Assembly (NCBI GenBank): GCA_042852035.1
Contig: BAAFHK010000001.1
Span: forward strand, 150,001-182,000
DNA length: 32,000 nt
Source of the DNA: Candidatus Saccharimonadota bacterium
Lineage (GTDB): Bacteria; Patescibacteriota; Gracilibacteria; BD1-5; UBA2023
Direction of reading: 5' to 3'
The notes beneath the pieces are model-generated. The model saw nothing but the letters and a program-made list of their open reading frames with translations, made no database searches and was not told the DNA's origin. Positions 212 through 31,100 of this stretch are shown here, one piece after another (the first letter of the stretch is position 1; every line of letters starts with the position of its first letter). The translations under genes were made by a program, and so were the position numbers.

Positions 212-1046
212 TAGGGCTAGCGCTTTGATCGATTACGACTTTTTTTCCAGAGTTAAGGGGCTTTTTCTCAAGAGAATCCATTTTTACGTATCAGCTTACA
301 TCCGGACCCGTATGAATAGTAAACTTGTAGTAACGAACCCCCTGAATCTCAATAACTTCTCAGGTAAGCCGTACGGCATTTCACTTTGAGAGATGTAGAG
401 GGCTATCCTGCATTTTTAGAGTATCCCAGGTAAAATACCCAGAGTCAGACTTCAGAGTATATATTTGTCATTGTACTGTGGTATCGCGCATTTCTAGTGG
501 CTTCGGTGCTGGAGCAGGGGAGTATTTTTTTAGAAATGCTTCTTCAAGTTTGCTTTGGGTCAGTGGTCAAAATGCGCCATCCACATCATCTCAGGTGAGT
601 CCGAGTAATTCCTGGAGTTTTTTACAGTTTTCTACAGATTCTCTACTATAGATATCAGAATCATAGAATTTCTTGAATGCATTACGTATTCTCATTCATT
701 CATCTCAGGATGGATGAATAATTTGTCCATCAGCAAAAATCGTAGTCGAACGTTTCTTGAAGGACATCATCTGCTCATGATTGTAGGCAAGTATTTTTGT
801 ATCACTGTCATCGATAATGATCTTCGAAGGATTTTGGGCATCGAGTTTTATGACTTCGAGTTTTCCACGAGTATCCTCTTTAAGTGTTACGACTTCTTCA
901 TCTGCCTTTTTCCTTGCATTAGCTCTCGCAATCGCTATTTCACGAACTTGTTCGCTCGAGAGATTATATCGAGACATATCGCCATATCCGACATTTTTTC
1001 TCTCCCCTGAGACGTACATACTAACATCAAATGCATTACGTGCCAT
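201..1046 (-). CDS. peptidoglycan-binding (PG_binding_1-like) plus SH3b-like domain protein, 281 aa, no signal peptide
   Basis: One continuous frame from ATG 1044-1046 to TAA 201-203 once the tga codons at 705, 696, 591 and others are read as Gly. The motif VENCKKLQELLGLTGDDVDGAFGPLTQSKLEEAF fits the PG-binding repeat. The C-terminal GNAVRLTGEVIEIQGVRYYKFTIHTGPDVSGYVKMDSL is SH3b-like. Confidence 0.7.
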
Positions 1047-1703: not shown

Positions 1704-2411
1704 TTATCCCCTCCAGCTTTTTCCGACAAGCTTCTCAGTAATATGAAATACCCATGCAAAACGATGACGGGGTTTCTTGCGAAAACAAAGGAGCCAAACT
1801 GCAAGATTTGATCCTGCGAGATAGAGTGGATAGATAAGGTCATGAAAGGTATAATTTTCTACCGCTATAAGTGAAAATATTCAGGAGAGCATCGCGAGGA
1901 ACCAAGCCCATTTGTCTTCCGTTTCGGGTTCTTTGTAGAGTTTTGTGAATATAGAAATAGCACCCATTGCATCGATAAGGGTATTCGTAAAAAGAACAAT
2001 CATAGCTACCTGTAATTCGTCGAATTCCAATTCTCAGGCGACATGAGGAAAATGTGAAAATACTGCCCAAATAATGAGGGAAAAAAGAGAAATCGCAAAA
2101 TAAAAAACTTCAACTTTATTAATTTTTGCTTCCCCATACTGAAATGCGAGTATAATGATGAGGAGTTGATTGATCGCATAAGCAAGAGCTGCTACTATTG
2201 TACTCATGCTATTGAGCTCATAGGCCGATATGAGGACGCAGATTGTCGCGAGCTCATAAAGTATCCATCCGACGATGTTTGGCTTTGTTTCTCCTCGGAT
2301 AATCGATCGCATATAGCGAAACGATGACGCGAAAATAATGACGGTACTAATAGCCGCTGCAAGCTCATGAAACGTAATCGATGTCTTTAAGAATGTAGAG
2401 AGAAAATCCAT
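1704..2411 (-). CDS. multi-pass integral membrane protein, 235 aa
   Basis: Track ORF 2034..2411 continues through the tga at 2034 and 1881 to TAA 1704-1706. It contains several hydrophobic helices. Confidence 0.7.
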
Positions 2412-2413
2412 AT

Positions 2414-2860
2414 TTATTCGTATTCATCAGCCTCTTCGACAGCATCATCGATGAACTGATTGACAAAATTCTTGGAGAGAAGGAGTATGATCATCCCTAT
2501 GGCGAGTGATGCGATGGAGGACTTTATCGGATGACCGACAAAGAGGAAGTTATCTGCAAGATTCCATATCCCACGCCAAAAAAGGATAATCGCCGCACCA
2601 ATAAGAAATGCTTCAATACGTTTCATCCAGAGTTCCCAGAGCGTATAGCGATGATGAAAGAAGCGGAATCTTCGTATTTTATCGACAGTACTCACTAATT
2701 TGTCATAAAATCCTCGTTTTGGATGAAGTTTTTCGAAAAATCGGCTTCCAATCGGTGCCGTTTCTTCGACTTGGCGAGTCATCCATTTTTCCGCATGCTC
2801 AAGTTTGTTCTTGAGTGTTTCAATTTCTGCGAGAAGTTCTTGTTCTCTTTTGGTAGCCAT
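2414..2860 (-). CDS. membrane protein with N-terminal coiled coil, 148 aa
   Basis: Intact ORF with ATG 2858-2860 and TAA 2414-2416. Two hydrophobic segments. It ends 2 nt before the next start, which suggests an operon with 1704..2411. Confidence 0.7.
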   Translation of the reverse strand: MATKREQELLAEIETLKNKLEHAEKWMTRQVEETAPIGSRFFEKLHPKRGFYDKLVSTVDKIRRFRFFHHRYTLWELWMKRIEAFLIGAAIILFWRGIWNLADNFLFVGHPIKSSIASLAIGMIILLLSKNFVNQFIDDAVEEADEYE

Positions 2861-2889
2861 AATCTGAGTGTATCATAACATTCTTTTTA

Positions 2890-2917
2890 TTGCAAAAAAG
2901 TATGATTTTTATATATT
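2890..2917 (+). promoter_or_regulatory. sigma70-like promoter upstream of serS
   Basis: TTGCAA (2890-2895), 16-nt spacer, TATATT (2912-2917), about 27 nt before the serS ATG. Confidence 0.35.
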
Positions 2918-2944
2918 GGAAGAAGCTTACCTATATTTTCTTTT

Positions 2945-4246
2945 ATGATTGATATCAAAATCCTCCGAACGAATCCTGAGATCGTCCGCAAAACCCTCCA
3001 TGACAAAGTCACGAAATGAGTGGATCTCGATGAAGTACTCCGTCTCGATAGTGAACGTGTGAGACTCCAACAAGAACTCGATGCTCTCAGGGCTCGCAAG
3101 AATGAAATCTCTGCGAGTATGGGAAAAGGGAAGCCTGAACCTGCGGTTCTCGAAGAAGCAAAAAGCGTGAAAGAAAAAATCCAATCCCTCGAACCAGAAT
3201 ATGATCGAGTCGAATCTGAATTTCTCACGCTCTTCAAAAAAATCCCAAATATCCCAACTTCAGATACTCCGATAGGGCTCACAGAAGAAGAAAATGTGAC
3301 CGTTAAACAATGGGGGAAGATTCGAGAATTCGATTTTCCAGTCCGAAATCATGCCGAAATCGCTGAAATCCGTGGATGGATCGATAAAGAGCGCGCCGCT
3401 AATGTTGCTGGTTCTCGTTTTGCCTACCTCAAGGGTGACCTCGTGAAACTCCAATTCGCCCTCATCCAGTGGGTGATGGATACGCTCTGAGATAGTGCGG
3501 TCCTCGATAAGGTTATCGCCGAACATGGACTGTCGGTATCAAACAAACCATTCACTCCCGTCCTTCCTCCATACATGATCAAGACCGCTCCCTATGATGC
3601 GATGGATAGACTCGAGCCTCGCGAAGAACGCTACAAAATCGAAGGAGAAGATCTCTGGCTCCAGGGAAGTGCTGAGCACGTCCTCGGTTCGATGCACGCA
3701 GGGGAGATATTCGCAGAAGCCGATATGCCGGTCCGCTATCTCGGATATGCGACATCATTTCGTGGTGAAGCTGGTACCTATGGGAAGGATATGGAGGGGA
3801 TTATCCGCATGCACCAATTCGATAAACTCGAGATGGAGTCATTCTCTACCGCTGAGGCCTCTCACGATGAGCACCTCCTCTTCGCAGGACTCCAGGAATA
3901 CCTTATGCAGCAACTCGAAATCCCATACCAAAAACTCCAGAAGTGTACCTTCGACATCGGAAAGCCGAATGCAAAAGGATCTGATATCGAGGCATGGCTT
4001 CCAGGACAGCAGAAATATCGAGAGACGCATACTGCTGACTATATGACCGACTATCAGTCTCGTCGCCTCCAGACTCGTGTACGCAGAGCTTCAGGTGAGG
4101 TAGAGCTCATACACACGAACGATGCTACAGCATTCGCCTGCGGTCGTGCACTCGTCGCGATCATGGAGAACTATCAGAATGCCGATGCCACTATCACAAT
4201 TCCGAAAGTGCTCAGGAATTATATGGGAGGGAAGGAGAGGATATAA
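2945..4246 (+). CDS. serS: seryl-tRNA synthetase, 433 aa
   Basis: MIDIKILRTNPEIV start, N-terminal coiled-coil arm, and class II core (FRGEAGTYGKD, IRMHQFDKLE, TNDATAFACGRALVAIMENYQ). Three track fragments in one frame are joined by the tga at 3017 and 3488. Confidence 0.95.
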
Positions 4247-4269
4247 TTTACTTTCTAACCAAACTTAAT

Positions 4270-5469
4270 ATGACAGCCATTGTTGTAGTCTTAAATAAGA
4301 ATTGAGTTTGAATAGCTGCAGATAGGGCATGAAGTGTTAATTGAGAGGTAACAAAAGTATTTGATAGCAATAAGCTATTCAGGCTTTCTAGAACAATTCC
4401 AGTTGGATTGTCAGTATATGCAAATTCAGAATTCATGTGAGTACCATGGGAAATTCTAGTCAAAGAATATAAAAAAAATGATAAATGTTTACATAGTATT
4501 GGTGATTACAAAAGTGACTTTATAAAATTTCTCTGAAATTTTGATTTACATGATCCAACGCCGCTTGAAAGACAGGTAATTTATCATTTCTTTTCAAAGT
4601 TAAGATCAAAAACAATTACAACTATTGATAGAGCTATTGATAATAATCCATGACTAAATTATGATCAAATCACAGAGATTATTAAAAATGAAATCATTTT
4701 AAATACTTATAATGATATAAATTTATCAGTAAAGCAAGTATCTCCAAATATATGAATGACTTCTAAAATGATAAACGATATAATTAAATGAAATATTGAA
4801 TTGATTGCAGGGCAAATTAAAATAATTTTCAAAAATATCGAATTGAAAAATGAGGATTTGGAGCTACTTATTAAGGCAATTAAGCTAGAATTAAAGTACT
4901 TTATTTACTGGAAATCCTATTCGTGAGTTATAATTACTTGATTCTGAAAAAATGATATATTTCCCTCCCTGAAAGAAATTATATTTTATTGAAAAATTTA
5001 TTGAAAAATAATCTATAAAGATTGAGAAGACTTTGCTATTACTCATAAGGTTACGTGATGAATCATTCCTTTTGCACAAAAAGATGTTGTCCAAAATATA
5101 ATAAATTGAATAAATCCTTTAGTAGAATGAAATCTTAAATCGGAGACAATGGCACTTATTAATAAATCCAAACTATCTAAGCCAAATAAAGAACTTTTAA
5201 ATAAGTCAATTATTGAAAAATTTTCAGAAACAAAACGAGCTTACTCAGAAAAATTAGTTAATATGTTGGAATTTTTTTCAATAAATGAGTTATGAAATAT
5301 TGCTGAAACACTTATCAACCTTACCTCATTCAATAGAAGAGTGAGAATGGAAGATGAATCAGTTTGACTTTGAACCGATGTTGCTATAATATCTAAGTAT
5401 GATTGATTCATTTGGAGTAAGCGAAAACACTATTTTGAACCCAATTTAAATCCTCATTATTTTAAGTAA
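4270..5469 (+). CDS. hypothetical protein with proteasome-beta/HslV-like Ntn-hydrolase N-terminus, 399 aa
   Basis: ATG 4270 to TAA 5467-5469 with no TAA or TAG in frame but 23 tga codons. Starts M-T-AIVVVLNKNGVGIAADRAGS, and later has SGVIITGFGKNDIFPSL. Very low GC. Invisible in the ORF track under the standard code. Confidence 0.6.
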
Positions 5470-5470
5470 T

Positions 5471-5590
5471 ATGACAAAATTAGCAGATTTTGAAATCAAT
5501 GTACCTCCGGAAGTAAAAAAGATGAAGTTTAATTCTAAGAAGGATATTTATGAGAATCTCTTTAATCTAGATATTGATTTTAAGAACTAG
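5471..5590 (+). CDS. 39-aa micro-ORF coupled to the preceding gene
   Basis: The ATG lies 1 nt after the upstream stop. Peptide MTKLADFEINVPPEVKKMKFNSKKDIYENLFNLDIDFKN. The TAG at 5588-5590 overlaps the terminator stem. Confidence 0.35.
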   Translation: MTKLADFEINVPPEVKKMKFNSKKDIYENLFNLDIDFKN

Positions 5591-5609
5591 CCCAAAACGG
5601 GCTTTTTTT
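5589..5609 (+). terminator. rho-independent terminator
   Basis: Stem agccc/gggct with loop aaaac, followed by a T-run. Confidence 0.6.
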
Positions 5610-5765
5610 ATGCTTTAATTCTCTATGTATAAAATTAAAAACATCACTCTTAGTCTCCTTACGTCTCGCACCATCCTCATCCTATTCTCTACGGATGGGC
5701 GAGTCCATAACTATGAGCTTCACTAAGAATCTTGTCTCGTGAATATAAATCTCTAATGTTGTACC

Positions 5766-5790
5766 AAAAATCCCTATCATAAGGGATTTT
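5766..5790 (-). terminator. rho-independent terminator after phnA (hairpin usable in both directions)
   Basis: Stem atccct/agggat with a 6-nt loop, flanked by an A-run and a T-run. Confidence 0.6.
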
Positions 5791-5807
5791 AAAATATATG
5801 CTTCTCT

Positions 5808-6032
5808 TTAGTCCACCTTCTTCACAAACTCGGTTCGTAGGACGAGTCACTTAATCTCGGGAGTATTGGCGGTGATTTCTTCAGAATCATCCGTCAGTCG
5901 GATATTTTTCACTTTGGTTCATTTTTTGAGAGTGACTTTGGTTCACTTTACTGAGAGTTCGCGAGTGAGCTGGACTGAGTCTCCAGAGGAGAGAGTATTT
6001 CCGAATGCGTCGGTGACGATGCTGTCTGACAT
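5808..6032 (-). CDS. phnA: PhnA/YjdM-family protein, C-terminal domain only, 74 aa
   Basis: MSDSIVTDAFGNTLSSGDSVQLTRELSVKGTKVTLKKGTKVKNIRLTDDSEEITANTPEIKGLVLRTEFVKKVD matches the conserved PhnA C-domain. Three tga codons read as Gly. Confidence 0.85.
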
Positions 6033-6203
6033 TTTGTAAAGGTAAAAGGTAAGATACAGAGAGTATAGTTGTATTCGACAGAAAATAAAAGTTTTCTCGT
6101 ATTAAAACTCTTTGGTTTTTCCTGGTCTCACTATCCTTCAAAAGGAGAGAGAATATATATAAGCCTACATCGTGAGTTGTATCGAGCGAGTAAGGCACTC
6201 TAT

Positions 6204-6866
6204 CTAATGACCAACAAACCACTCAAATAATCTCCCACTCTCGAGATATTCTGGATGCCACTGCACGCCATAGTGGGGGAGCGTTGTATGCTCGATGGCT
6301 TCGATTTCTTCATCGAAGGAGCTACGAGCAACGACACGGAGTCATGCCCCGAGCGAGTCGACGGCTTGGTGGTGGATGGAGTTGATTTTGAGCTTTTTGC
6401 TCACGTAGAGTGCTGAGAGGAAGGTATCATCTTCGATGTGGATCTCATCGATTTTCTCATAGCCACGTTCGGGTTGGAAGTGGTAGGTATTTTCTTCGAG
6501 GTCTTGTTTCAGAGTTCCACCGTGATAGACATTTATGAGCTGCATCCCTTTACATATACCGAGGATGGGCTTATTGTTTTTTGTAATCTCTTCCATCGAA
6601 GACAGGAGGAATCGGTCATAACTCGGGATGGTTCCACGAGCTCCGTCCATATCTCGACCATAGAGTGAAGGATCGATATCCTGTCCACCAGGGAAGATGA
6701 AGGCGTCAGAGAGATTGAGGTAGAATTTGATATTTGAAGAGAAGCAGGGGATGATGATGGCGATACTTCAGGTTGCTTCAATCTTTGAAATATAATCAAA
6801 TGACAGATTATTAAAGAGTCTGCCTGCATATTCCCGACGTTGAGCGAAGATACCGATATGTTTCAT
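6204..6866 (-). CDS. class I glutamine amidotransferase, peptidase C26 (gamma-glutamyl hydrolase-like), 220 aa
   Basis: GICKGMQ nucleophile elbow, HHQAV, and GVQWHPE. ATG 6864-6866 and TAG 6204-6206. The tga codons at 6768 and 6342 are read through. Confidence 0.9.
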
Positions 6867-16897: not shown

Positions 16898-18598
<1,701 letters not shown>

Positions 18599-18607
18599 AA
18601 AATCAAT

Positions 18608-18642
18608 AAAAAAATCCCTCTCATAAGATGAGAGGGATTTTT
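18608..18642. terminator. bidirectional rho-independent terminator
   Basis: 11-bp stem atccctctcat/atgagagggat with loop aag, flanked by an A-run and a T-run, between convergent genes. Confidence 0.7.
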
Positions 18643-18650
18643 ATTTAGAA

Positions 18651-18824
18651 TTATGCAATAGTGTTACCTCCGCTTGCAATAGTGTTACCTCCGCTTGCAA
18701 TAGTGTTACCTCCGCTTGCAATAGTGTTACCTCCGCTGGCCATCATCGAAGAAGTACCGAGACTCATAACACTCGAGAGAGTAATGGTTGCAATAGCAAC
18801 AACTGAAACGACCTTTTTATTCAT
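18651..18824 (-). CDS. secreted repeat peptide: signal peptide plus 4 x SGGNTIA, 57 aa
   Basis: ATG 18822-18824 and TAA 18651-18653. Sequence MNKKVVSVVAIATITLSSVMSLGTSSMMA followed by (SGGNTIA)x4. It has its own promoter and terminator. Below the 60-aa cutoff of the ORF track. Confidence 0.65.
   Translation of the reverse strand: MNKKVVSVVAIATITLSSVMSLGTSSMMASGGNTIASGGNTIASGGNTIASGGNTIA
18654..18737. repeat. four perfect tandem copies of a 21-bp unit (tgcaatagtgttacctccgct)
   Basis: Units at 18654, 18675, 18696 and 18717 are 100 percent identical, in frame, and each encodes SGGNTIA. Confidence 0.95.
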
Positions 18825-18857
18825 ATTTGTATTTGTTTAAGATATAAAGGTGATAGT

Positions 18858-18886
18858 ATTTTAGCACAAATTTTTTTTAATTACAA
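18858..18886 (-). promoter_or_regulatory. sigma70-like promoter of the repeat-peptide gene
   Basis: On the minus strand: TTGTAA (18886-18881), 17-nt spacer, TGcTAAAAT (-10 at 18863-18858). Confidence 0.45.
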
Positions 18887-18950
18887 ATTAAATTTGACAT
18901 TTATTAAATTTAATTAATATTGAAAATATATTCACTGAATAATATTAATT

Positions 18951-21422
18951 ATGGAGGTATATCTTTTTGACAATGATCAGTTGCCAAAACTAGACGATAC
19001 ATACCCAACATTTCAAAATATTGAGCCGACTCTCAGGGAACGGATTTGACGACAGGATACCACCTTTCGATCTCTTGCATTTCCTGACTCTGTCTATTTT
19101 TCCGATCCTCTCTTACCAGATAATCCTGAACAACTCGAGACCTACCTTGTGAGTTATGTATCTGGTATTTATAATTTCAAAAATAAACACCCATCATTAG
19201 CATATTTTCGATTAACTCAAGTATTACGAGATGTACAAAAGTTTCCAAAGATAGTTACTAGCCCCATATATCTAAGGGTGAAAGCTGAGTGGATTGCTGC
19301 AGCTATGTTTAGTGGGGATTTTTCATCTGTATACGATTCCAGAGTGTCTCTTGAGTCGAGCTTATCGGATCATATTTCTCGGATGACACATGGAGTACCT
19401 CTACAGAGTGAAGGACTCGTTCTTGATGATGAGATGATCTACGAATATAGGGCCCATTTGCTCCAATTTATCAATTATTTCTCAAAATACTACTATAGTG
19501 TCTGACTTTATAATGAAGCAAGTATCATCTCTGCCAAATGAATTAAGATTGCTGCACTCATGAGCGCTGCACATCCAAAATTTAATCTGCTACTTGATAG
19601 GCTTATGGCTATTATTGAGCAAGGCGAGTTCGATACCCAAGAATTTCAAGAAACTCTCAGAATCGGAAGAATATGATCTCAGGTACTTACTGACTTCTTT
19701 GAACAAAGAGGGAGTGCTGATGTTGCAAAAACCATACAAGATCAATTGAAAATTGTTGAACTCTATTGAGAAGTAAAAAGCTTTAAAGGATGTGATGCAC
19801 TGAAATTAGCTGAATTTATTCAGCGCTGGGAGTGACTCAATAATAATGCAACTATCGATCAGGATGATAGAGCAAAACTTGCACATATAGAGATGATGCT
19901 CTATGTTCAGTACAGAGATCTACAAGAAGAACAAAATTCATTACTTGATGCCAAATCACATCACCATGAAGAGTTTAATAGGATATTGCTTTTCTGAGCA
20001 AAGCTCGTGAATCAGGGATTTGAACTTGATAAATATAAAGATAGTCCAGATGCACGATTTTTTCTCGCATCTTTTATAGATCATTTAGAATTTAATGTCA
20101 GATCACTTGTATGATCAAGTAAATGAAAAACCAATAACCAGAAAATACTTAGTGTGAGAAATGCAATCGTTGATATTTATCGACTTGCAGTTGGAGTTGA
20201 TGAATCAGGGATTGATGTTTTTAGGAGAATGAGTTTTTATCGGCAGTTTATTAATGCGGCAAGGCTTTATTTTCATCATATCGGTGTCTCTGATATTGGA
20301 AATGATAATACCGTACTCATGCAGATTCGACTCATTTCTCAAGAGTTAGAGCAAGAGGCGCATGTGAATCATGGTAAAATGATTGAGTATATAGTAGCGA
20401 GGTGGAAAAGAATTTCTCAGATTAGTCTCTCAAAAACTACTGAAGATGGTGAAAAAGAAGATGGAAATAAGGTAATATATGAGTGAAATTGTCAGCAAAA
20501 TGACTTTAGACAAGTCATACACAGTCTCTCTTGAGGGGCCAAATATAAATTTACAGTAGCTGTAAGAGGAGCCCCATTTGGCCAAAGAGACTTAGCACTC
20601 TTAGCTACCGATCTCGCGAAACTCCTCGCATATGAGACAAAAAAAATGATTGAGACAGAAGTGTCTGGTACTATGAGGATTCTTAGGCATGATTTAACAA
20701 ATCTAATAGGAAGCATATGACCAGCAAGTCAACTCTTAGATCAACGAGTCAGTCAAGTTGAAGAAGAAGTGGATCGAATTATCTGAATTCCTGGAAATCC
20801 AAGGGAAACAGTTGAACGACTTGAAAGATTATCTGCCTGAAATCTGAAAATAATACGCCGCCTTACTGCAGCGCTCGCAAGTAATGCAAGTGGAATTGGT
20901 GACTTTACAGCAAGAATGGTTGATGAGATTGATGCTATTATGCAATGATATAAACTGAGTAGGCAACCCCTCAATGTGACAAAATATATTTCTGATAAAA
21001 TGTGAACTGGTGCAGGGCAGTGAATCGATTTTCAAGTAATAGGGAATGATACTTTGGTGTTAGTAAATATATGAATGTTTGGTGGGCTTGTTGATAATAT
21101 CGTTCAAAATGCAAAGCGATACAAAAGACCAACCGAAGAAAAAGCAAAATTAACAATCTCCATTCATGATAGTTCAGATGGTGTTACGGTTGCTTTTATG
21201 GATGAGTGAATTGGCATGACGAATAAAGCAATTTGAACGTTTCTCTCGGCACATACTGGTGCAGAATTGGATTATTGATCTGAAGCTGCAAGAACAATTG
21301 AGTCAAAACGGCTCGGAGCAAAAAGTATTATGAATACCGTAAGAGCACATAATGCATCACTCCAGATAGAAAGTGAGGTAGGGAAATACACGAATTTTCT
21401 ATTCACCTTTCCAAAAAGCTAA
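18951..21422 (+). CDS. cytoplasmic sensor histidine kinase with large helical N-terminal region, 823 aa
   Basis: H-box MRILRHDLTNLIGSI. N-box LVDNIVQNAKRY. G1 box FMDE-G(tga)-IGM. G2-like SKRLGAKSIM...ESEVGKYTNFLFTFPK. About 21 tga codons. No hydrophobic segment seen. Confidence 0.8.
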
Positions 21423-23599: not shown

Positions 23600-23837
23600 C
23601 GGTTTTAGGATTAAGAAAAAGAAATGAGGGCAAATGCCCTCAAAGGAATTGATGAAGAGATAGTACCTAGAAAACTGAAAAAAGCGAATCTGAATTTAGA
23701 AGATACGATGCATGCTTGAATACTACTACAATAATCTATGAAAGTTAAATAATTATGATATTACAATAAAAATTACAATGTCAATTGAATCTGAAATTCA
23801 AAAGATGATATAATAGATTTATGTATAAAATCAAATT

Positions 23838-24749
23838 ATGACTCAAAACCTCGCTCTCTCTATCAAAGGACTCTCAAAAACCTACCAAAATGGAAAAAAG
23901 GCACTCGATGATGTTGATTTTTCTATTCCGGTTTGAGGATTTGTAGCACTTCTCGGAGAGAATGGAGCATGAAAATCAACTCTCATAAATATTGTTTCTG
24001 GATTGATTCCAAAGACTCATGGTTCAATCCAAATCTTTGGAAAAGATATTGATAAATACCGAGAGGATTCCAAGCTTTCCATCGGCATTATGCCACAAGA
24101 AATCAATCTTTCTATTTTTGAGAAATGTATTGATATCGTCACAACTGTAGGAGGCTATTATGGTGTACCGCTTTCAGTTGCTCGACCTCGTGCCGAGCGT
24201 CTTCTCGATGCACTCTGACTTGGTGATAAAAAAGAATCCATGGCACGAACTCTCTCTGGGGGTATGAAACGTCGATTGATGCTTGCCCGAGCGCTGATTC
24301 ATGAGCCAAAACTTCTTATTCTTGATGAGCCAACTGCAGGGGTAGATGTTGCTCTGCGTCGTGGAATGTGGGAATATCTTCAAAATCTTCAGAAGGAGAC
24401 GGGTATGACTATACTTCTTACGACTCACTATCTCGAAGAAGTCGAGGCACTCTGTGATCATGTGACGATTCTTAATCAGGGTAAAGTCGTCTCATCAGAC
24501 TCTGTAAAAAATACCCTCAAGAAACTTGAGAGTGAAACATATCTTATAGAAATTGATGGTCAAAACTGTAAAGAAATACCTGGATTGGTCCAATTTCAGG
24601 ATCAAGTTTTGGAAGTGATAATTGATAAGAAGAATACCCTCTCTCATGTATTTGATATTCTTCGATCTCAGTCGATTGCCATCCTTTCTGTAAAGCCAAA
24701 AGAGAACCGGCTTGAAGCATTCTTTCTTACTAAAAATTCTGAATCCTAA
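23838..24749 (+). CDS. ABC transporter ATP-binding protein (ABC-2 exporter type), 303 aa
   Basis: Walker A is GENGA-G(tga 23970)-KST. Signature LSGGMKRR. Walker B LLILDEPT. H-loop TTHY. Confidence 0.9.
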
Positions 24750-25426
24750 TCCTTTATGTAGGGATTTTCATCGGTATCATCTTCTTTGTATATAGTCATT
24801 CAACGAATAATGAGGGTATTTCTCTCATTTTTTTTCTCGAGAATATAATAAATACGTATCCCACTTTCGAATGATAGAGACTGCCACTCATCTGATTCGG
24901 TTATGAGCACGTTTGGTCCTGAGCTAAAATCATGTTGTCGACTTATATCAACTTTTCAAAGAATTGATCCAGTAAAGAGTTCATCACCTATTTTTTGTCA
25001 AAAAGAATTTGTACCACGAAATCAAGGTCATACAAATATGCTTGAGAGGGGAATGTTTTTGCAGCTTGGATATTTTGATATAAAAGAATCTCTATTATTT
25101 TTGATGGTAGCAAGCTCATTTATTCATCCTACACTCTCACGACAAGCTTTTGGAATTTTAAAGAAAAAAACATACTGAAATTTTTCGTATCAGAGCTCAT
25201 AAGCGTATCAATAATCTCATGCAGAAACTCCAAGAGCACCACCTCAAACCTTATCCATAACTTCAAATAAATCACTCGCATAGAGGTGGATATCCTCCAA
25301 TCAAACTCAAGCCGTAAGTGTTCCATGAGAATATTTTGAGGGGACACTTCCTCACCAAATAAAAAAACTAGCACTACTAGCAATTATCAAAAGAAGAATT
25401 CATAGGATGATGAGCTGATATCTCAT
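24746..25426 (-). CDS. membrane-anchored hypothetical protein, 226 aa
   Basis: ATG 25424-25426. Anchor helix MRYQLIILGILLLIIASSASFFIW. About 17 tga codons. The TAG at 24746-24748 overlaps the stop of the ABC ATPase gene. Confidence 0.55.
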
Positions 25427-30871: not shown

Positions 30872-30900
30872 TTGCAAATCATAAATTTATGTGATAATAT
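30872..30900 (+). promoter_or_regulatory. sigma70-like promoter with extended -10
   Basis: TTGCAA (30872-30877), 17-nt spacer including TG, TAATAT (30895-30900). Confidence 0.45.
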
Positions 30901-30932
30901 ATATTTACATTAATTTTCTAACACATACACAT

Positions 30933-31055
30933 ATGCAGAAACACTTTGCAGAGTTCGAGGCAAAACACAATATTCGCCCATATACTCTTGTTCTTCTTGG
31001 ATTATTCGCTGTAACGAATAATGCATTGGCTGCCGCCCAGCTCGTACAATTCTAA
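30933..31055 (+). CDS. 40-aa small hydrophobic-tailed protein
   Basis: MQKHFAEFEAKHNIRPYTLVLLGLFAVTNNALAAAQLVQF, bracketed by a promoter and a terminator. Confidence 0.4.
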   Translation: MQKHFAEFEAKHNIRPYTLVLLGLFAVTNNALAAAQLVQF

Positions 31056-31070
31056 CATCTTGATATTAAA

Positions 31071-31100
31071 AATCCCCTTGTAATAATAGGGGATTTTTTT
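31071..31100 (+). terminator. rho-independent terminator
   Basis: Stem aatcccct/aggggatt followed by a 7-T run. Confidence 0.65.

Follow-up and report, generated by a model that had tools for sequence, protein, structure and literature searches.

The closest described systems to the locus reported here are the RRNPPA systems (Rap-Phr, NprR-NprX, PlcR-PapR, and AimR-AimP), which have been described in the Bacillota and their mobile elements (PMC11343458, PMC9765709, PMC10075063). In these systems, a small propeptide gene that carries a signal adjoins the gene for a cytoplasmic helical-repeat sensor. The mature pheromone, of 5 to 10 amino acids (aa), lies in most cases at the C terminus, and 1 to 4 repeated copies of it are present in some propeptides (PMC11343458, PMC9765709). 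The RRNPP(A) signature is taken here as the five criteria of RRNPP_detector (PMC10075063). The AgrD/AgrC, ComC/ComD, and ComX/ComP systems of Gram-positive bacteria link a histidine kinase gene with one that encodes a short exported peptide; AgrC, ComD, and ComP sense the peptide outside the cell via polytopic membrane domains, and the Agr/Com loci also carry a response regulator gene and a dedicated processing/export gene. Here, in an episymbiont of the Patescibacteria (CPR) rather than in the Bacillota, we describe an unannotated gene for an exported-peptide candidate that is divergent from the gene for a soluble histidine kinase.

The locus lies in a 32-kb window (the whole stretch of DNA analyzed, 32,000 nucleotides) of the 1.3-Mb genome of MAG HHAS10, class JAEDAM01, a Zoogloea episymbiont that lives inside Zoogloea flocs and for which genetic code 25 (UGA = Gly) has been published (PMC11393006). 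Code 25 is required for reading the whole window; on this condition, the preliminary description is confirmed in all details open to checking. The kinase open reading frame (ORF; positions 18951 to 21422, plus strand) contains 21 in-frame TGA codons and is open only when all of them are read through, and in the G1 box (DE-TGA-IGM) the first Gly is supplied by one of these codons, which fits code 25. Read in this code, the ORF encodes 823 aa, identical to NCBI HHAS10_01730.

The small gene (18651 to 18824, minus strand) consists of 57 codons and a TAA stop and was not seen in gene calls. Its product is MNKKVVSVVAIATITLSSVMSLGTSSMMA followed by four copies of SGGNTIA. Codons 1 to 29 (18738 to 18824, minus strand) have the character of a Sec-type signal, with an n-region MNKK, an uncharged hydrophobic core of 16 residues (VVSVVAIATITLSSVM), and a c-region of small residues, SLGTSSMMA. 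The best 15-residue Kyte-Doolittle mean is 2.24, and a signal-peptide-like N terminus, scored by a heuristic criterion that is not SignalP, is present in 4 of the 215 ATG-started ORFs of at least 40 aa in the six frames; of the three besides the small gene, one is an ORF of 226 aa and two resemble lipoproteins. The candidate cleavage positions are ambiguous (SLG/TSS or MMA/SGG). The remainder of the gene is four head-to-tail 21-bp units (18654 to 18737, minus strand), each reading AGC GGA GGT AAC ACT ATT GCA, which are nucleotide identical and in frame, with the stop codon immediately after the last unit. Tandem Repeats Finder reports 21 bp × 4.0 copies at 100% identity with a score of 168, against 75 for the second-best repeat in the window. 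The preliminary description of a signal peptide followed by nothing except four identical SGGNTIA units is therefore confirmed for the sequence, with the signal character supported by the heuristic values (2.24; 4 of 215). No protease sites are found between the repeat units. We considered and rejected a double-glycine leader: the Gly-Gly sits inside each unit and does not end a leader of ~15 to 25 aa. Neither a C39 peptidase nor an ABC exporter of the double-glycine type is encoded in the 32-kb window, which does hold an ABC-2 permease.

Searches for similar peptides gave no matches. The exact protein sequence is absent from ~15 billion proteins, exact look-ups of variants with 1 to 7 copies matched nothing, no homologue of the peptide was found in 5.8 billion clusters, and neither the peptide nor the sensor domain of the kinase matches Pfam or NCBIfam. 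We also found no description of such a peptide or system in the literature, in agreement with the earlier statement that this is not a described system. Because UGA is not a stop in this organism, several frames of the small-gene region are open, and an open frame alone means little. Judged from sequence features and from the comparisons given below, the small ORF is a real gene.

The two genes are separated by a spacer of 126 bp (18825 to 18950; 87% A+T) that holds two back-to-back promoter-like sites. The site for the small gene (18858 to 18886, minus strand) consists of TTGTAA, 17 nucleotides (nt), and TG-n-TAAAAT, with a TG extension, and the site for the kinase gene (18894 to 18921, plus strand) consists of TTGACA, 16 nt, and AATATT. 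These two sigma-70-like promoters would drive the small gene and the kinase gene, respectively. By reading, there is an A8 run inside the promoter spacer. The 5′ leader of the small gene (18825 to 18857, minus strand; …CACCTTTATATCTTAAACAAATACAAAT-ATG) has no Shine-Dalgarno sequence. Since all 17 window genes that were checked likewise lack one, its absence is no argument against translation of the small ORF. On the other side of the small gene lies a hairpin (18610 to 18642) with a 15-pair stem that includes 5 G-C pairs and a loop of 3, flanked by a T-run (minus strand) and, at its opposite end, by an A-run. It can serve both strands and is common to the small gene and the convergent helicase gene (16898 to 18598, plus strand), which is of the PIF1 type with an HTH_40 domain by Pfam. 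The small-gene mRNA would be monocistronic, ~240 nt long, and would end at this bidirectional terminator. The promoter, the AT-rich 126-bp spacer, the bidirectional terminator, and the convergent helicase gene had all been noted beforehand, and each was located as described.

The kinase has the C-terminal part expected of a two-component sensor. Its catalytic domain (20964 to 21419, plus strand; residues 672 to 823) contains the N box DNIVQNAKRY (715) and the G1 box DEGIGM (751) of a GHKL ATP-binding domain and matches Pfam HATPase_c at residues 713 to 822 (E = 4e-9, above the gathering score). This is the only Pfam match in the protein at E ≤ 0.01; there is no TPR match and nothing in the sensor region. 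The Pfam HisKA model gave no scoring match in the kinase, and NCBIfam gave partial matches to the C termini of PhoR and WalK. The DHp helical hairpin (20583 to 20942, plus strand; residues 545 to 664) carries the predicted phospho-accepting residue His580 (RHDLTNL; 20688 to 20690), which AlphaFold2 places inside a 67-residue helix, and Foldseek aligns the protein across the DHp-CA regions of HK853, WalK, ZraS, and KinB (E = 1e-7 to 1e-4). Because the highest 19-residue Kyte-Doolittle mean is 1.53, the kinase has no recognizable transmembrane segment, and we predict that it is cytoplasmic. Both the H, N, and G1 boxes and the missing transmembrane segment had been reported from first inspection. 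The kinase had also been called an orphan, and no receiver domain was found in any window ORF of at least 100 aa (Pfam), in the six-frame translation of the window (crude three-sequence receiver profile), or in the 18.7-kb orthologous locus (L007) described below. The adjacent response regulator gene of a typical two-component system is thus lacking at both loci, and the orphan status holds for 32 kb of the 1.3-Mb genome.

The N-terminal region of the kinase had been described as helical over about 550 aa. In the AlphaFold2 model, helices extend over residues 26 to 484 (19026 to 20402, plus strand), forming an all-helical TPR-like solenoid, and residues 488 to 538 (20412 to 20564, plus strand; pLDDT 63 to 74) form a four-strand beta-sheet linker that precedes the DHp and CA domains. 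The best Foldseek matches of the sensor in the PDB are the peptide-binding TPR solenoids of LGN (4wnd, E = 0.011), KLC1, and MalT domain III. About half of the best 50 matches are TPR solenoids and the remainder are other helical repeats; none of the 50 reaches E ≤ 1e-3, and Rap, NprR, PlcR, PrgX, and AimR are not among them. A PDB sequence-profile search with the sensor found no match, and when the family profile was aligned to a TPR_12-type protein with hhalign, the probability was 2.4%. The model of residues 1 to 545 is confident (pLDDT 83, pTM 0.78), and its nearest folds are TPR domains with a peptide-binding groove, which makes a receptor role for the solenoid plausible. We found 12 relatives of the sensor region among 1.84 billion representatives, and by these sequence searches the solenoid is specific to the UGA-recoded CPR lineages in which it was detected.

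The only relative found for the kinase pair is in GCA_031386685.1 (L007), so that the kinase subfamily is sampled in two genomes. The L007 kinase is ~43% identical and keeps the phospho-accepting His (LQHDLRNL). At the corresponding position, in frame and divergent from the kinase gene, there is a 42-codon ORF (5998 to 6126 of L007, minus strand) that encodes MNKK, a hydrophobic signal, and two copies of VGEGSVV, followed by a stop codon and a terminator. It had been proposed that loss of the small ORF, or of its frame, in relatives that keep the kinase would count against the module, and in L007 the ORF is retained. The two small proteins share MNKK and a hydrophobic core (Kyte-Doolittle 2.38 in L007) and almost no other residues. 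The repeat unit is entirely different (GTA GGT GAA GGT TCT GTG GTA, two perfect 21-bp copies with the stop directly after them), and the number of copies is 2 versus 4, with 100% identity of copies within each genome. The leader is nearly identical to that of the HHAS10 small gene, and both genes start with ATG AAT AAG AAG. The L007 spacer is 118 bp long, compared with 126 bp in HHAS10, and TTGACA, read by eye, likewise lies upstream of its kinase start. The perfect 12-nt palindrome ATTAAATTTAAT lies within the divergent promoter region of HHAS10 (18903 to 18914), where it has its single occurrence in the 32-kb window, and it also occurs once in the L007 spacer (6170 to 6181), although the spacers are otherwise diverged. 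It is a candidate operator on sequence grounds, and in 87% A+T DNA it may be a chance occurrence. The whole neighborhood (POR, SIMPL, helicase, small gene, kinase, and DUF1993) is syntenic between HHAS10 and L007, and for this reason conserved adjacency alone is weak evidence.

More distant solenoid homologues provide a second genomic context. In four genomes (L008, L010, L013, and L016), the solenoid is joined to a different C-terminal domain of ~350 aa that matches no known family, and its gene lies in a different neighborhood. Here too, a small gene with 2 or 3 copies of a 6- to 10-residue Gly-containing motif adjoins the solenoid gene. Counting the kinase loci, a small gene with 2 to 4 copies of such a motif adjoins the solenoid gene in all six genomes with readable flanks, in divergent orientation in the two kinase genomes and in convergent orientation in the four distant genomes. 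The pairing of a multicopy peptide gene with a solenoid protein, first noted in HHAS10, therefore recurs with the opposite orientation. The small genes of L007 and of the distant genomes keep the position and extended −10 element (TGTGnTA…) of the small-gene promoter, the four distant 5′ leaders can be aligned with the HHAS10 small-gene leader, and a stop codon followed by a hairpin is found in L007 and in all four distant small ORFs. The motif forms the exact C-terminal end of four of the six small ORFs.

The distant small genes also show how their motifs are maintained. In L010, the three copies of IGNGFA differ by 5 synonymous and 0 nonsynonymous changes. In L013, the two copies of TGNGWA are written ACA TGA AAT GGA TGG GCT and ACA GGG AAT GGT TGG GCT, so that the synonymous changes include TGA to GGG exchanges. 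The differences between the L008 and L013 leader-coding regions fall 7/6/16 at the three codon positions. Because the distant motifs persist while their codons change synonymously, the repeat is no noncoding VNTR, an outcome that had been named as one that would undermine the coding interpretation. In the four distant small proteins, the leader is hydrophilic and a hydrophobic signal is absent. They share the leader MT[NH]xKxSQ[KR][KR]KASLxAL, which is followed by variable repeated motifs and acidic spacers (e.g., IGNGFA-AEDVNMDIAR-IGNGFA-ATDVNVDLA-IGNGFA). They are no more than putative homologues of the kinase-linked peptides, and the shared promoter-leader class also precedes an unrelated 40-aa ORF at 30933 to 31055 of the window. 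We conclude that the two genes form a real module and that it is specific to those UGA-recoded CPR lineages where we found it.

Our preferred but tentative reading, made by analogy, is that the pair forms a peptide signal that is exported, re-imported, and detected by a cytoplasmic receptor, an RRNPPA-like logic that ends in a kinase. Sec would export the precursor, signal peptidase would cleave it near residues 23 to 29, and the repeat tail (28 to 34 aa) would be trimmed outside the cell to heptapeptide-sized units, with four copies per precursor raising the yield per transcript. The peptide would then be re-imported and would bind the concave face of the solenoid. Binding would alter autophosphorylation at His580, and phosphate would pass to a response regulator encoded elsewhere. 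A heptapeptide and a receptor that diverge fast together would yield strain-specific "pherotypes." The interpretation offered in the preliminary description is partly supported.

The likeness to RRNPPA systems is in the adjoining genes for a small propeptide with a signal-like N terminus and a cytoplasmic helical-repeat sensor, in a C-terminal unit of pheromone size (7 aa) present in up to four identical copies per propeptide, and in strong peptide divergence between relatives. The propeptides (57 aa; 42 aa in L007) are within the range of 10 to 100 aa of the RRNPP signature, and the receptor and propeptide genes are adjacent (divergent, with a spacer of 126 bp; 118 bp in L007). However, the receptor has 823 aa rather than ~250 to 500 aa (the sensor part alone is ~480 aa), and the search for a TPR hidden Markov model match was negative (Pfam at E ≤ 0.01; hhalign, 2.4%; PDB profile search). 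The receptor ends in a DHp-CA kinase and not in an HTH, phosphatase, or response-regulator-binding surface, its solenoid is unrecognized by TPR models and has no specific likeness to RRNPPA structures, the repeats follow the signal peptide without an intervening pro-region, and the 32-kb window has no Opp-type oligopeptide permease genes. Membership in RRNPPA is rejected on three grounds: TPR models, receptor length, and homology. The Agr/Com-type systems have the linkage of a short exported-peptide gene to a kinase gene in common with this locus but differ in their membrane sensor domains and in the regulator and processing/export genes, which are not found in the window. The small gene, moreover, has no double-glycine leader. 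The MFalpha1 precursor of the yeast alpha-factor consists of a signal peptide and four tandem pheromone copies, an arrangement that raises the yield per transcript and resembles that of the small gene. However, the yeast copies are 13 aa long and separated by Kex2/Ste13 spacer sites, whereas the units here abut, and the yeast receptor is an unrelated GPCR. The two are not linked by descent.

A broader proposal, which is possible but about which we are doubtful, is that UGA-recoded CPR bacteria (JAEDAM01, Gracilibacteria, and relatives) have a peptide-receptor module family of their own. In each module, a small and strongly promoted gene would encode several copies of a Gly-containing peptide of 6 or 7 residues, and its partner would be a cytoplasmic TPR-like solenoid protein with a variable output. 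Outputs in such a family would be the histidine kinase here and the ~350-aa domain elsewhere.

The main alternative to the signaling reading, rather unlikely but with several points in its favor, is that the product of the small gene is a repeat peptide, secreted or displayed on the surface, with a function outside the cell and that the kinase is merely its syntenic neighbor. Such a peptide might serve in contact with the Zoogloea host, in the matrix or adhesion, or as an antigenically variable coat that changes by slippage, and the divergent layout would reflect inherited synteny and, at most, shared transcriptional control. Repeats that are perfectly identical within a genome and differ in unit and number (4 versus 2) between genomes are what would be seen for fast-evolving surface repeats, and nucleotide-identical units are expected from recent slippage in any repeat. 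The wholly syntenic neighborhood of HHAS10 and L007 means that adjacency could be inherited and not selected. The heptad SGGNT(I/V)(A/S) also forms a linker rich in Ser and Gly in a lipoprotein-like protein (L004) that is unrelated and belongs to a G+C-richer organism. The organism itself is an episymbiont within Zoogloea flocs (PMC11393006), and there is the A8 run in the promoter spacer. The Vlp/Vsa proteins of mycoplasmas have a signal sequence followed by in-frame, nucleotide-identical repeats whose number differs between strains, and their reduced genomes, in which UGA is also a sense codon, carry homopolymer runs in promoter spacers that in the vlp genes are phase-variation switches. In contrast to Vlp/Vsa, the product here has no lipobox Cys and is several-fold smaller, no gene-family array or invertible element is seen, and linkage to a large protein family recurs. 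The mature product would have just 28 to 34 aa, and the 57-aa protein lacks any anchor that we looked for (Cys/lipobox, LPXTG-like or SLH motif, or C-terminal hydrophobic segment). Furthermore, the multicopy-motif gene also adjoins solenoid proteins in a nonsyntenic context and in the opposite orientation, and the motifs of the distant genes are under purifying, not diversifying, selection.

It is improbable that the small genes are multicore precursors of a modified or cleaved natural product (antimicrobial or host directed) with the solenoid proteins as leader-binding/processing, immunity, or regulatory partners. The conserved leader, variable motifs, and acidic spacers of the distant small proteins are a layout typical of multicore precursors, and the ~350-aa domain of the distant large proteins could be an enzyme. 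However, by Pfam the 32-kb window has no radical-SAM, YcaO, lanthipeptide, cyanobactin-protease, ATP-grasp, or C39-peptidase transporter gene, and such genes are also absent from the precomputed domain lists of L007, L008, L010, L013, and L016. The partner in the window is a canonical histidine kinase and not a peptide-acting enzyme, and SGGNTIA has no Cys and few modifiable side chains. A Sec signal peptide is unusual in bacterial RiPP precursors, which also counts against this explanation. Multicore RiPP precursors such as those of cyanobactins have a leader and then repeated cores with flanking recognition sequences; the HHAS10 repeats are spacerless and come after a Sec-like signal, and the distant small proteins do have a conserved leader and motifs set apart by spacers.

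It is very unlikely that the 57-codon ORF is untranslated, as a small RNA or noncoding VNTR that might, for example, titrate a protein through its four GGAGG repeats: each unit does contain GGAGG in a genome with no visible Shine-Dalgarno use (0 of 17 genes), several frames are open where UGA is sense, a promoter and a terminator of its own are present, as for small RNAs, and no protein homologue was found in 5.8 billion clusters, but L007 keeps the frame, start context, signal character, and stop after the last repeat although the repeat RNA differs, the predicted RNA structure is unexceptional (z-scores of −2.0 and +0.8; in the centroid structure, the terminator alone is stable) and without an Rfam match, and the motifs of the related genes are kept through synonymous changes, with substitutions peaking at third codon positions.

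CPR/Patescibacteria are ultrasmall episymbionts with minimal genomes in which, to our knowledge, regulatory systems are scarce, and next to nothing is known about how they sense partners, hosts, or their own density. If the signaling reading is correct, we know of no earlier case in Patescibacteria of peptide-based communication between cells or between symbiont and host, nor of an RRNPPA-style intracellular peptide receptor wired directly into phosphorelay signaling. The logic of export, processing, re-import, and a solenoid receptor would then extend beyond the Bacillota and to a kinase output. The pair of a secreted peptide and a soluble kinase would offer a testable handle on signaling in an uncultivated lineage, for which simple reagents (synthetic heptapeptide and recombinant soluble kinase) would suffice. 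Regardless of signaling, this class of small-peptide genes is likely to be missed by standard annotation, being short, without a Shine-Dalgarno sequence, and with in-frame UGA, and gene calls made with code 11 or code 4 in public collections fragment or mistranslate the solenoid partner proteins.

The small gene (18651 to 18824, minus strand) is a 57-codon ORF whose product consists of MNKKVVSVVAIATITLSSVMSLGTSSMMA followed by four identical SGGNTIA units. At the DNA level, these units are a tandem repeat of 21 bp × 4.0 copies with 100% identity, which is by far the strongest that Tandem Repeats Finder detects in the window. The ORF is preceded on the minus strand by a promoter-like site with a TG extension, TTGTAA-17-(TG)n-TAAAAT, and is followed by a 15-pair hairpin with flanking A- and T-runs, a candidate terminator for both strands that is shared with a convergent gene for a PIF1-type helicase that ends in an HTH_40 domain (Pfam). 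A divergent spacer of 126 bp (87% A+T) separates the small gene from the kinase gene (18951 to 21422, plus strand) and carries a kinase-facing promoter-like site, TTGACA-16-AATATT, on the plus strand. The preliminary description had reported the repeat units, the extended promoter, the bidirectional terminator, and the AT-rich spacer, and all of these are borne out. It had also proposed a Sec-type signal peptide, and the product passes a crude hydrophobicity test for a basic N terminus and an uncharged hydrophobic core, as do only 4 of 215 six-frame ORFs; of the other three, two are lipoprotein-like and one is 226 aa long. Based on these sequence features, the small gene appears to encode a secretory-type precursor with nothing but four heptapeptides after its signal. 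No Shine-Dalgarno sequence was found before any of 17 window genes checked, and its absence before the small ORF is therefore uninformative. By eye, several window genes have a -10-like hexamer just ~8 to 15 nt before the start codon, which would suggest very short leaders or leaderless mRNAs.

The 57-aa peptide has no homologues at an E value of ≤10 among 5.8 billion clusters, and neither its exact sequence nor any 1- to 7-copy variant is present in a collection of 15 billion proteins. The gene and its peptide are in none of the protein collections and gene lists queried and match no Pfam or NCBIfam model. We found no description in the literature of the small gene and kinase together, in agreement with the earlier statement that this is not a recognized system. 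A degenerate DNA scan of JGI metagenomes for (SGGNTIA)x2 yields a single match, in a lipoprotein-like gene of a G+C-richer organism (contig Ga0206856_10104, ~330 to 560, minus strand) that carries the run SGGTVV/SGGNTVS/SGGNTVA/SGGNTIA as a Ser/Gly-rich linker. The gene is unrelated and the linker is Ser/Gly-rich, and we take this match as an analogy rather than as a homologue. It does indicate that the heptad can arise independently as a low-complexity spacer.

Reading the kinase depends on the genetic code. Under the standard bacterial code, the window is almost without long ORFs and the kinase frame is interrupted by 21 TGA codons; we rejected this code 11 reading, which splits the kinase into more than 20 pieces, in favor of code 25. 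A normal gene map is obtained once TGA is a sense codon. The in-frame glycines of the kinase are then encoded by 21 TGA and 34 GGN codons, and the G1 box, DE-TGA-IGM, has TGA for its first Gly, which identifies the code as code 25 (UGA = Gly). This reassignment has already been published for HHAS10 (PMC11393006, PMC9530719), a 1.3-Mb metagenome-assembled genome of the class JAEDAM01 that is 97.7% complete and comes from activated sludge, where fluorescence in situ hybridization places the cells inside Zoogloea clusters (PMC11393006, PMC9530719). The 823-aa kinase is identical to the NCBI entry [quoted passage not shown] on a 750-kb contig. Public gene calls for the UGA-recoded organisms considered here are either fragmented (code 11) or have Trp in place of Gly (code 4). 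Under code 25, long overlapping ORFs are open on both strands at ~2400 to 6260 and 23745 to 25270, and the greedy gene map is unreliable there; ORFs tested in these regions, e.g., 3943 to 5469 (508 aa), have no Pfam match, and 23745 to 24887 (minus strand) looks spurious, with an alternative plus-strand ORF at 23829 to 24746.

With code 25, the divergent 823-aa kinase of the preliminary description is confirmed, with an H box (RHDLTNL, with His 580 as the predicted phospho-accepting residue), an N box at 715, a G1 box at 751, and a HATPase_c domain at residues 713 to 822 (Pfam). No transmembrane segment was found in it, as had been claimed. AlphaFold2 modeling of the full-length protein from a 9-sequence alignment (pLDDT 71) places helices at residues 26 to 484, a four-stranded sheet at 488 to 538, and, starting at 545, a long DHp helix, with the CA domain after it. 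Foldseek matches the C-terminal third to HK853, WalK, ZraS, and KinB over their DHp-CA cores. A separate model of residues 1 to 545 is confident (pLDDT 83, pTM 0.78), and its nearest solved folds include peptide-holding TPR solenoids, namely, LGN (E = 0.011), kinesin light chain, and MalT domain III. In this Foldseek search, no match reaches an E value of ≤1e-3, and sequence methods do not detect TPRs in the sensor. The kinase is cytoplasmic, and its sole candidate sensor is a large solenoid of the peptide-groove type.

Searched exhaustively by HMMER with the sensor region as the query, 1.84 billion representatives yield 12 proteins; one of these, P0004 (1396 aa, 16 repeats), is a repeat artifact and was set aside. 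Word-index searches with the whole kinase and its N terminus return just the kinase itself and one fragment, and a scan of GTDB species genomes with the kinase returns just two distant HATPase_c matches. Two short HMMER matches are code 11 fragments of a single orthologue, P0014 (831 aa, GCA_031386685.1), which is 43% identical overall to the window kinase. L007, the P0014 locus, shows synteny with the window (POR, SIMPL, helicase, gap, kinase, and DUF1993). The gap, an unannotated 279 bp, contains on the minus strand a small ORF, ATG AAT AAG AAG…, that reads MNKKATLAVLISALAVVSGSVAVQS-G(TGA)-FLS-VGEGSVV-VGEGSVV-stop and is followed by a hairpin terminator. The small genes of the window and L007 agree in leader, first four codons, frame, and signal-peptide character, and both have perfect copies at a 21-bp period and a stop directly after the last unit. 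Heptad sequence and copy number differ. The preliminary description had named loss or frameshift of the small ORF in relatives as grounds against it; this relative keeps the ORF in frame beside the kinase. We consider this conservation strong evidence that the small ORF is a real, selected gene, and the small gene and kinase, with their predicted back-to-back promoters, are kept together across a protein identity of 43%. By eye, the heptads can be aligned codon by codon (A-S-G-G-N-T-I versus V-G-E-G-S-V-V), which would fit, as weak evidence, one ancestral heptad with concerted evolution. The divergent promoter region contains a perfect palindrome, ATTAAATTTAAT (18903 to 18914), that has no second copy in the 32-kb window, and the L007 spacer, although otherwise diverged, has it once as well (6170 to 6181). 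By eye, the two genomes differ in the promoter spacer that it overlaps, which is that of the kinase in one and that of the small gene in the other. The palindrome may be an operator, but in 87% A+T DNA it may also be due to chance. The window spacer also has an imperfect 16-nt A+T repeat at 18876 to 18921. Another match, P0005 (833 aa; JGI contig Ga0654615_0060561, 19 to 2520), is 25% identical over the sensor, and the next gene after it is DUF1993-like, an arrangement that the window shares. An alignment by eye places Glu at its phospho-accepting His position (…MTREEVINLLG), and it may be a pseudokinase or be misaligned; its contig is too short to cover any small ORF upstream.

Six more distant proteins (P0006, P0007, P0009, P0010, P0011, and P0013) have the solenoid alone in common with the kinase, at 15 to 20% identity (E = 1e-16 to 4e-4). 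Their C-terminal domain differs from that of the kinase and is not matched by Pfam, NCBIfam, or a PDB profile search. Many Trp residues stand at conserved Gly positions, which shows that code 4 gene calling was applied to UGA-recoded genomes. The genes around these proteins are not those of the window: GroEL or pentose-phosphate genes precede them, and genes for cNMP-binding, SH3, and ClpB proteins follow. In 4 of 4 of these genomes, the large solenoid gene converges tail-to-tail with a small monocistronic gene that has a promoter and a terminator of its own, in one case with an IS200-type insertion between the two. At L013 6580 to 8062 and L014 3634 to 5116, the small repeat-peptide gene is separated from two tandem solenoid genes (P0007, P0010) by an insertion of an IS200/IS605-type Y1 transposase gene and a 317-aa ORF. 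The small genes, all on the minus strand (L008, 4380 to 4676; L010, 4257 to 4505; L013, 8124 to 8385; L016, 3779 to 4018), encode proteins of 79 to 98 aa without Pfam or NCBIfam matches, in which a conserved hydrophilic leader, MT[NH]xKxSQ[KR][KR]KASLxAL, precedes 2 to 3 copies of short Gly-containing motifs. These are IGNGFA × 3 at the C-terminal end in L010, FAGESSHG × 2 and TGNGWA × 2 at the C-terminal end in L013, AKEASGGFA × 2 in L016, and REA(T/R/S)(G/P)GL(C/A) × 3 in L008. The L010 copies have 5 synonymous versus 0 nonsynonymous differences, and the L013 copies differ synonymously in GGA/GGT and TGA/GGG pairs, the same Gly of the two TGNGWA copies being written TGA and GGG. Counted by codon position, the L008 and L013 leaders differ at 7/6/16 sites, with the third position highest. 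The synonymous copies and the third-position peak indicate that these genes are translated and that the motif is under purifying selection. Thus, a solenoid protein adjoins a small gene with 2 to 4 copies of a 6- to 10-residue Gly-containing motif in 6 of 6 genomes with readable flanks, a small sample (two with the kinase type and four with the other type), and this pairing is seen in either orientation and in two different contexts.

RRNPPA peptide quorum sensing provides the nearest working model. There, the gene for a Sec-secreted propeptide adjoins that for an intracellular helical-repeat receptor, and a pheromone of 5 to 10 aa, usually C-terminal and possibly in 1 to 4 copies, is reimported and then bound (PMC11343458, PMC9765709, PMC10075063). 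The locus differs in its histidine kinase output and its Patescibacteria host. We reject its membership in RRNPPA: the receptor length and TPR HMMs do not fit, and structural relatedness was not found, with no RRNPPA receptor among the top 50 Foldseek matches of the 1 to 545 model. The locus is best filed as a putative secreted oligopeptide with an intracellular solenoid receptor, new in having a histidine kinase output, in Patescibacteria. We tentatively infer a cycle, possible rather than probable, in which the precursor would be exported by a Sec-type pathway and cleaved to a pheromone that would be reimported and bound by the kinase. The output would be kinase autophosphorylation, and the response regulator would be encoded elsewhere; no receiver domain was found in the 32-kb window, as stated earlier, or in the L007 locus.

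Only slightly less likely is that the small gene encodes a repeat peptide that evolves fast and is secreted or surface exposed, and that the kinase is a bystander. Copies that are identical at the nucleotide level, a unit and copy number that differ in L007, the use of an SGGNTIA-type heptad as a linker in the unrelated lipoprotein-like gene, and a fully syntenic neighborhood all favor this reading, but the product is tiny and without any anchor, and pairing with a solenoid protein recurs in a second context. We consider it quite improbable that the small genes are multicore RiPP-like precursors; the distant small proteins do fit a leader, spacer, and core layout, but no modifying enzyme was found nearby, and the partner in the window is a canonical kinase. 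That the small ORF region is a noncoding repeat or small RNA is very hard to reconcile with the conserved frame, the signal-peptide character, the synonymous-site patterns, unremarkable RNA folding, and the lack of any Rfam match in the window. A tRNA scan of the window is likewise empty. A CsrB-like RNA sponge for the GGAGG repeats was considered and rejected, being unsupported by RNA folding and opposed by the coding evidence.

All six small genes have a TTGCAT-like -35 element, 17 nt, TGTGnTA…, and then …TAAC[AC][AC]ATACA[AG]AT-ATG-A. A control search finds the same promoter-leader element at window positions 30881 to 30935 (plus strand), before a 40-aa ORF (30933 to 31055) without repeats and not beside any solenoid protein, which refutes the shared element as proof of small-gene homology. 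The element is therefore the mark of a small-peptide gene class, possibly a regulon, rather than of one family, and suggests that this class is coregulated. What connects the small genes beside the kinases with the distant ones is analogy of architecture and neighbor rather than demonstrated homology. In viral contigs, the 18-mer core of the leader has 70 chance matches, 0 of them with the wider context. A possible stem around the start codon, pairing CACCUU of the leader with AAGG of codons 4 and 5 (18825 to 18852 with 18810 to 18818; 5 to 6 bp, start codon in the loop), has an equivalent in L007 and looks compensated in L008 (GUCUU/AAGAC), and we set it aside since L010, L013, and L016 lack it in alignments by eye. 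The 40-aa ORF belongs to a second monocistronic small gene (30873 to 31092, plus strand), which reads TTGCAA … TGTGATAATAT … TTCTAACACATACACAT-ATG and encodes MQKHFAEFEAKHNIRPYTLVLLGLFAVTNNALAAAQLVQF, a peptide with one hydrophobic segment. This gene has its own hairpin terminator at ~31066 to 31099 and is closely followed by a gene with an SLH (S-layer homology) domain.
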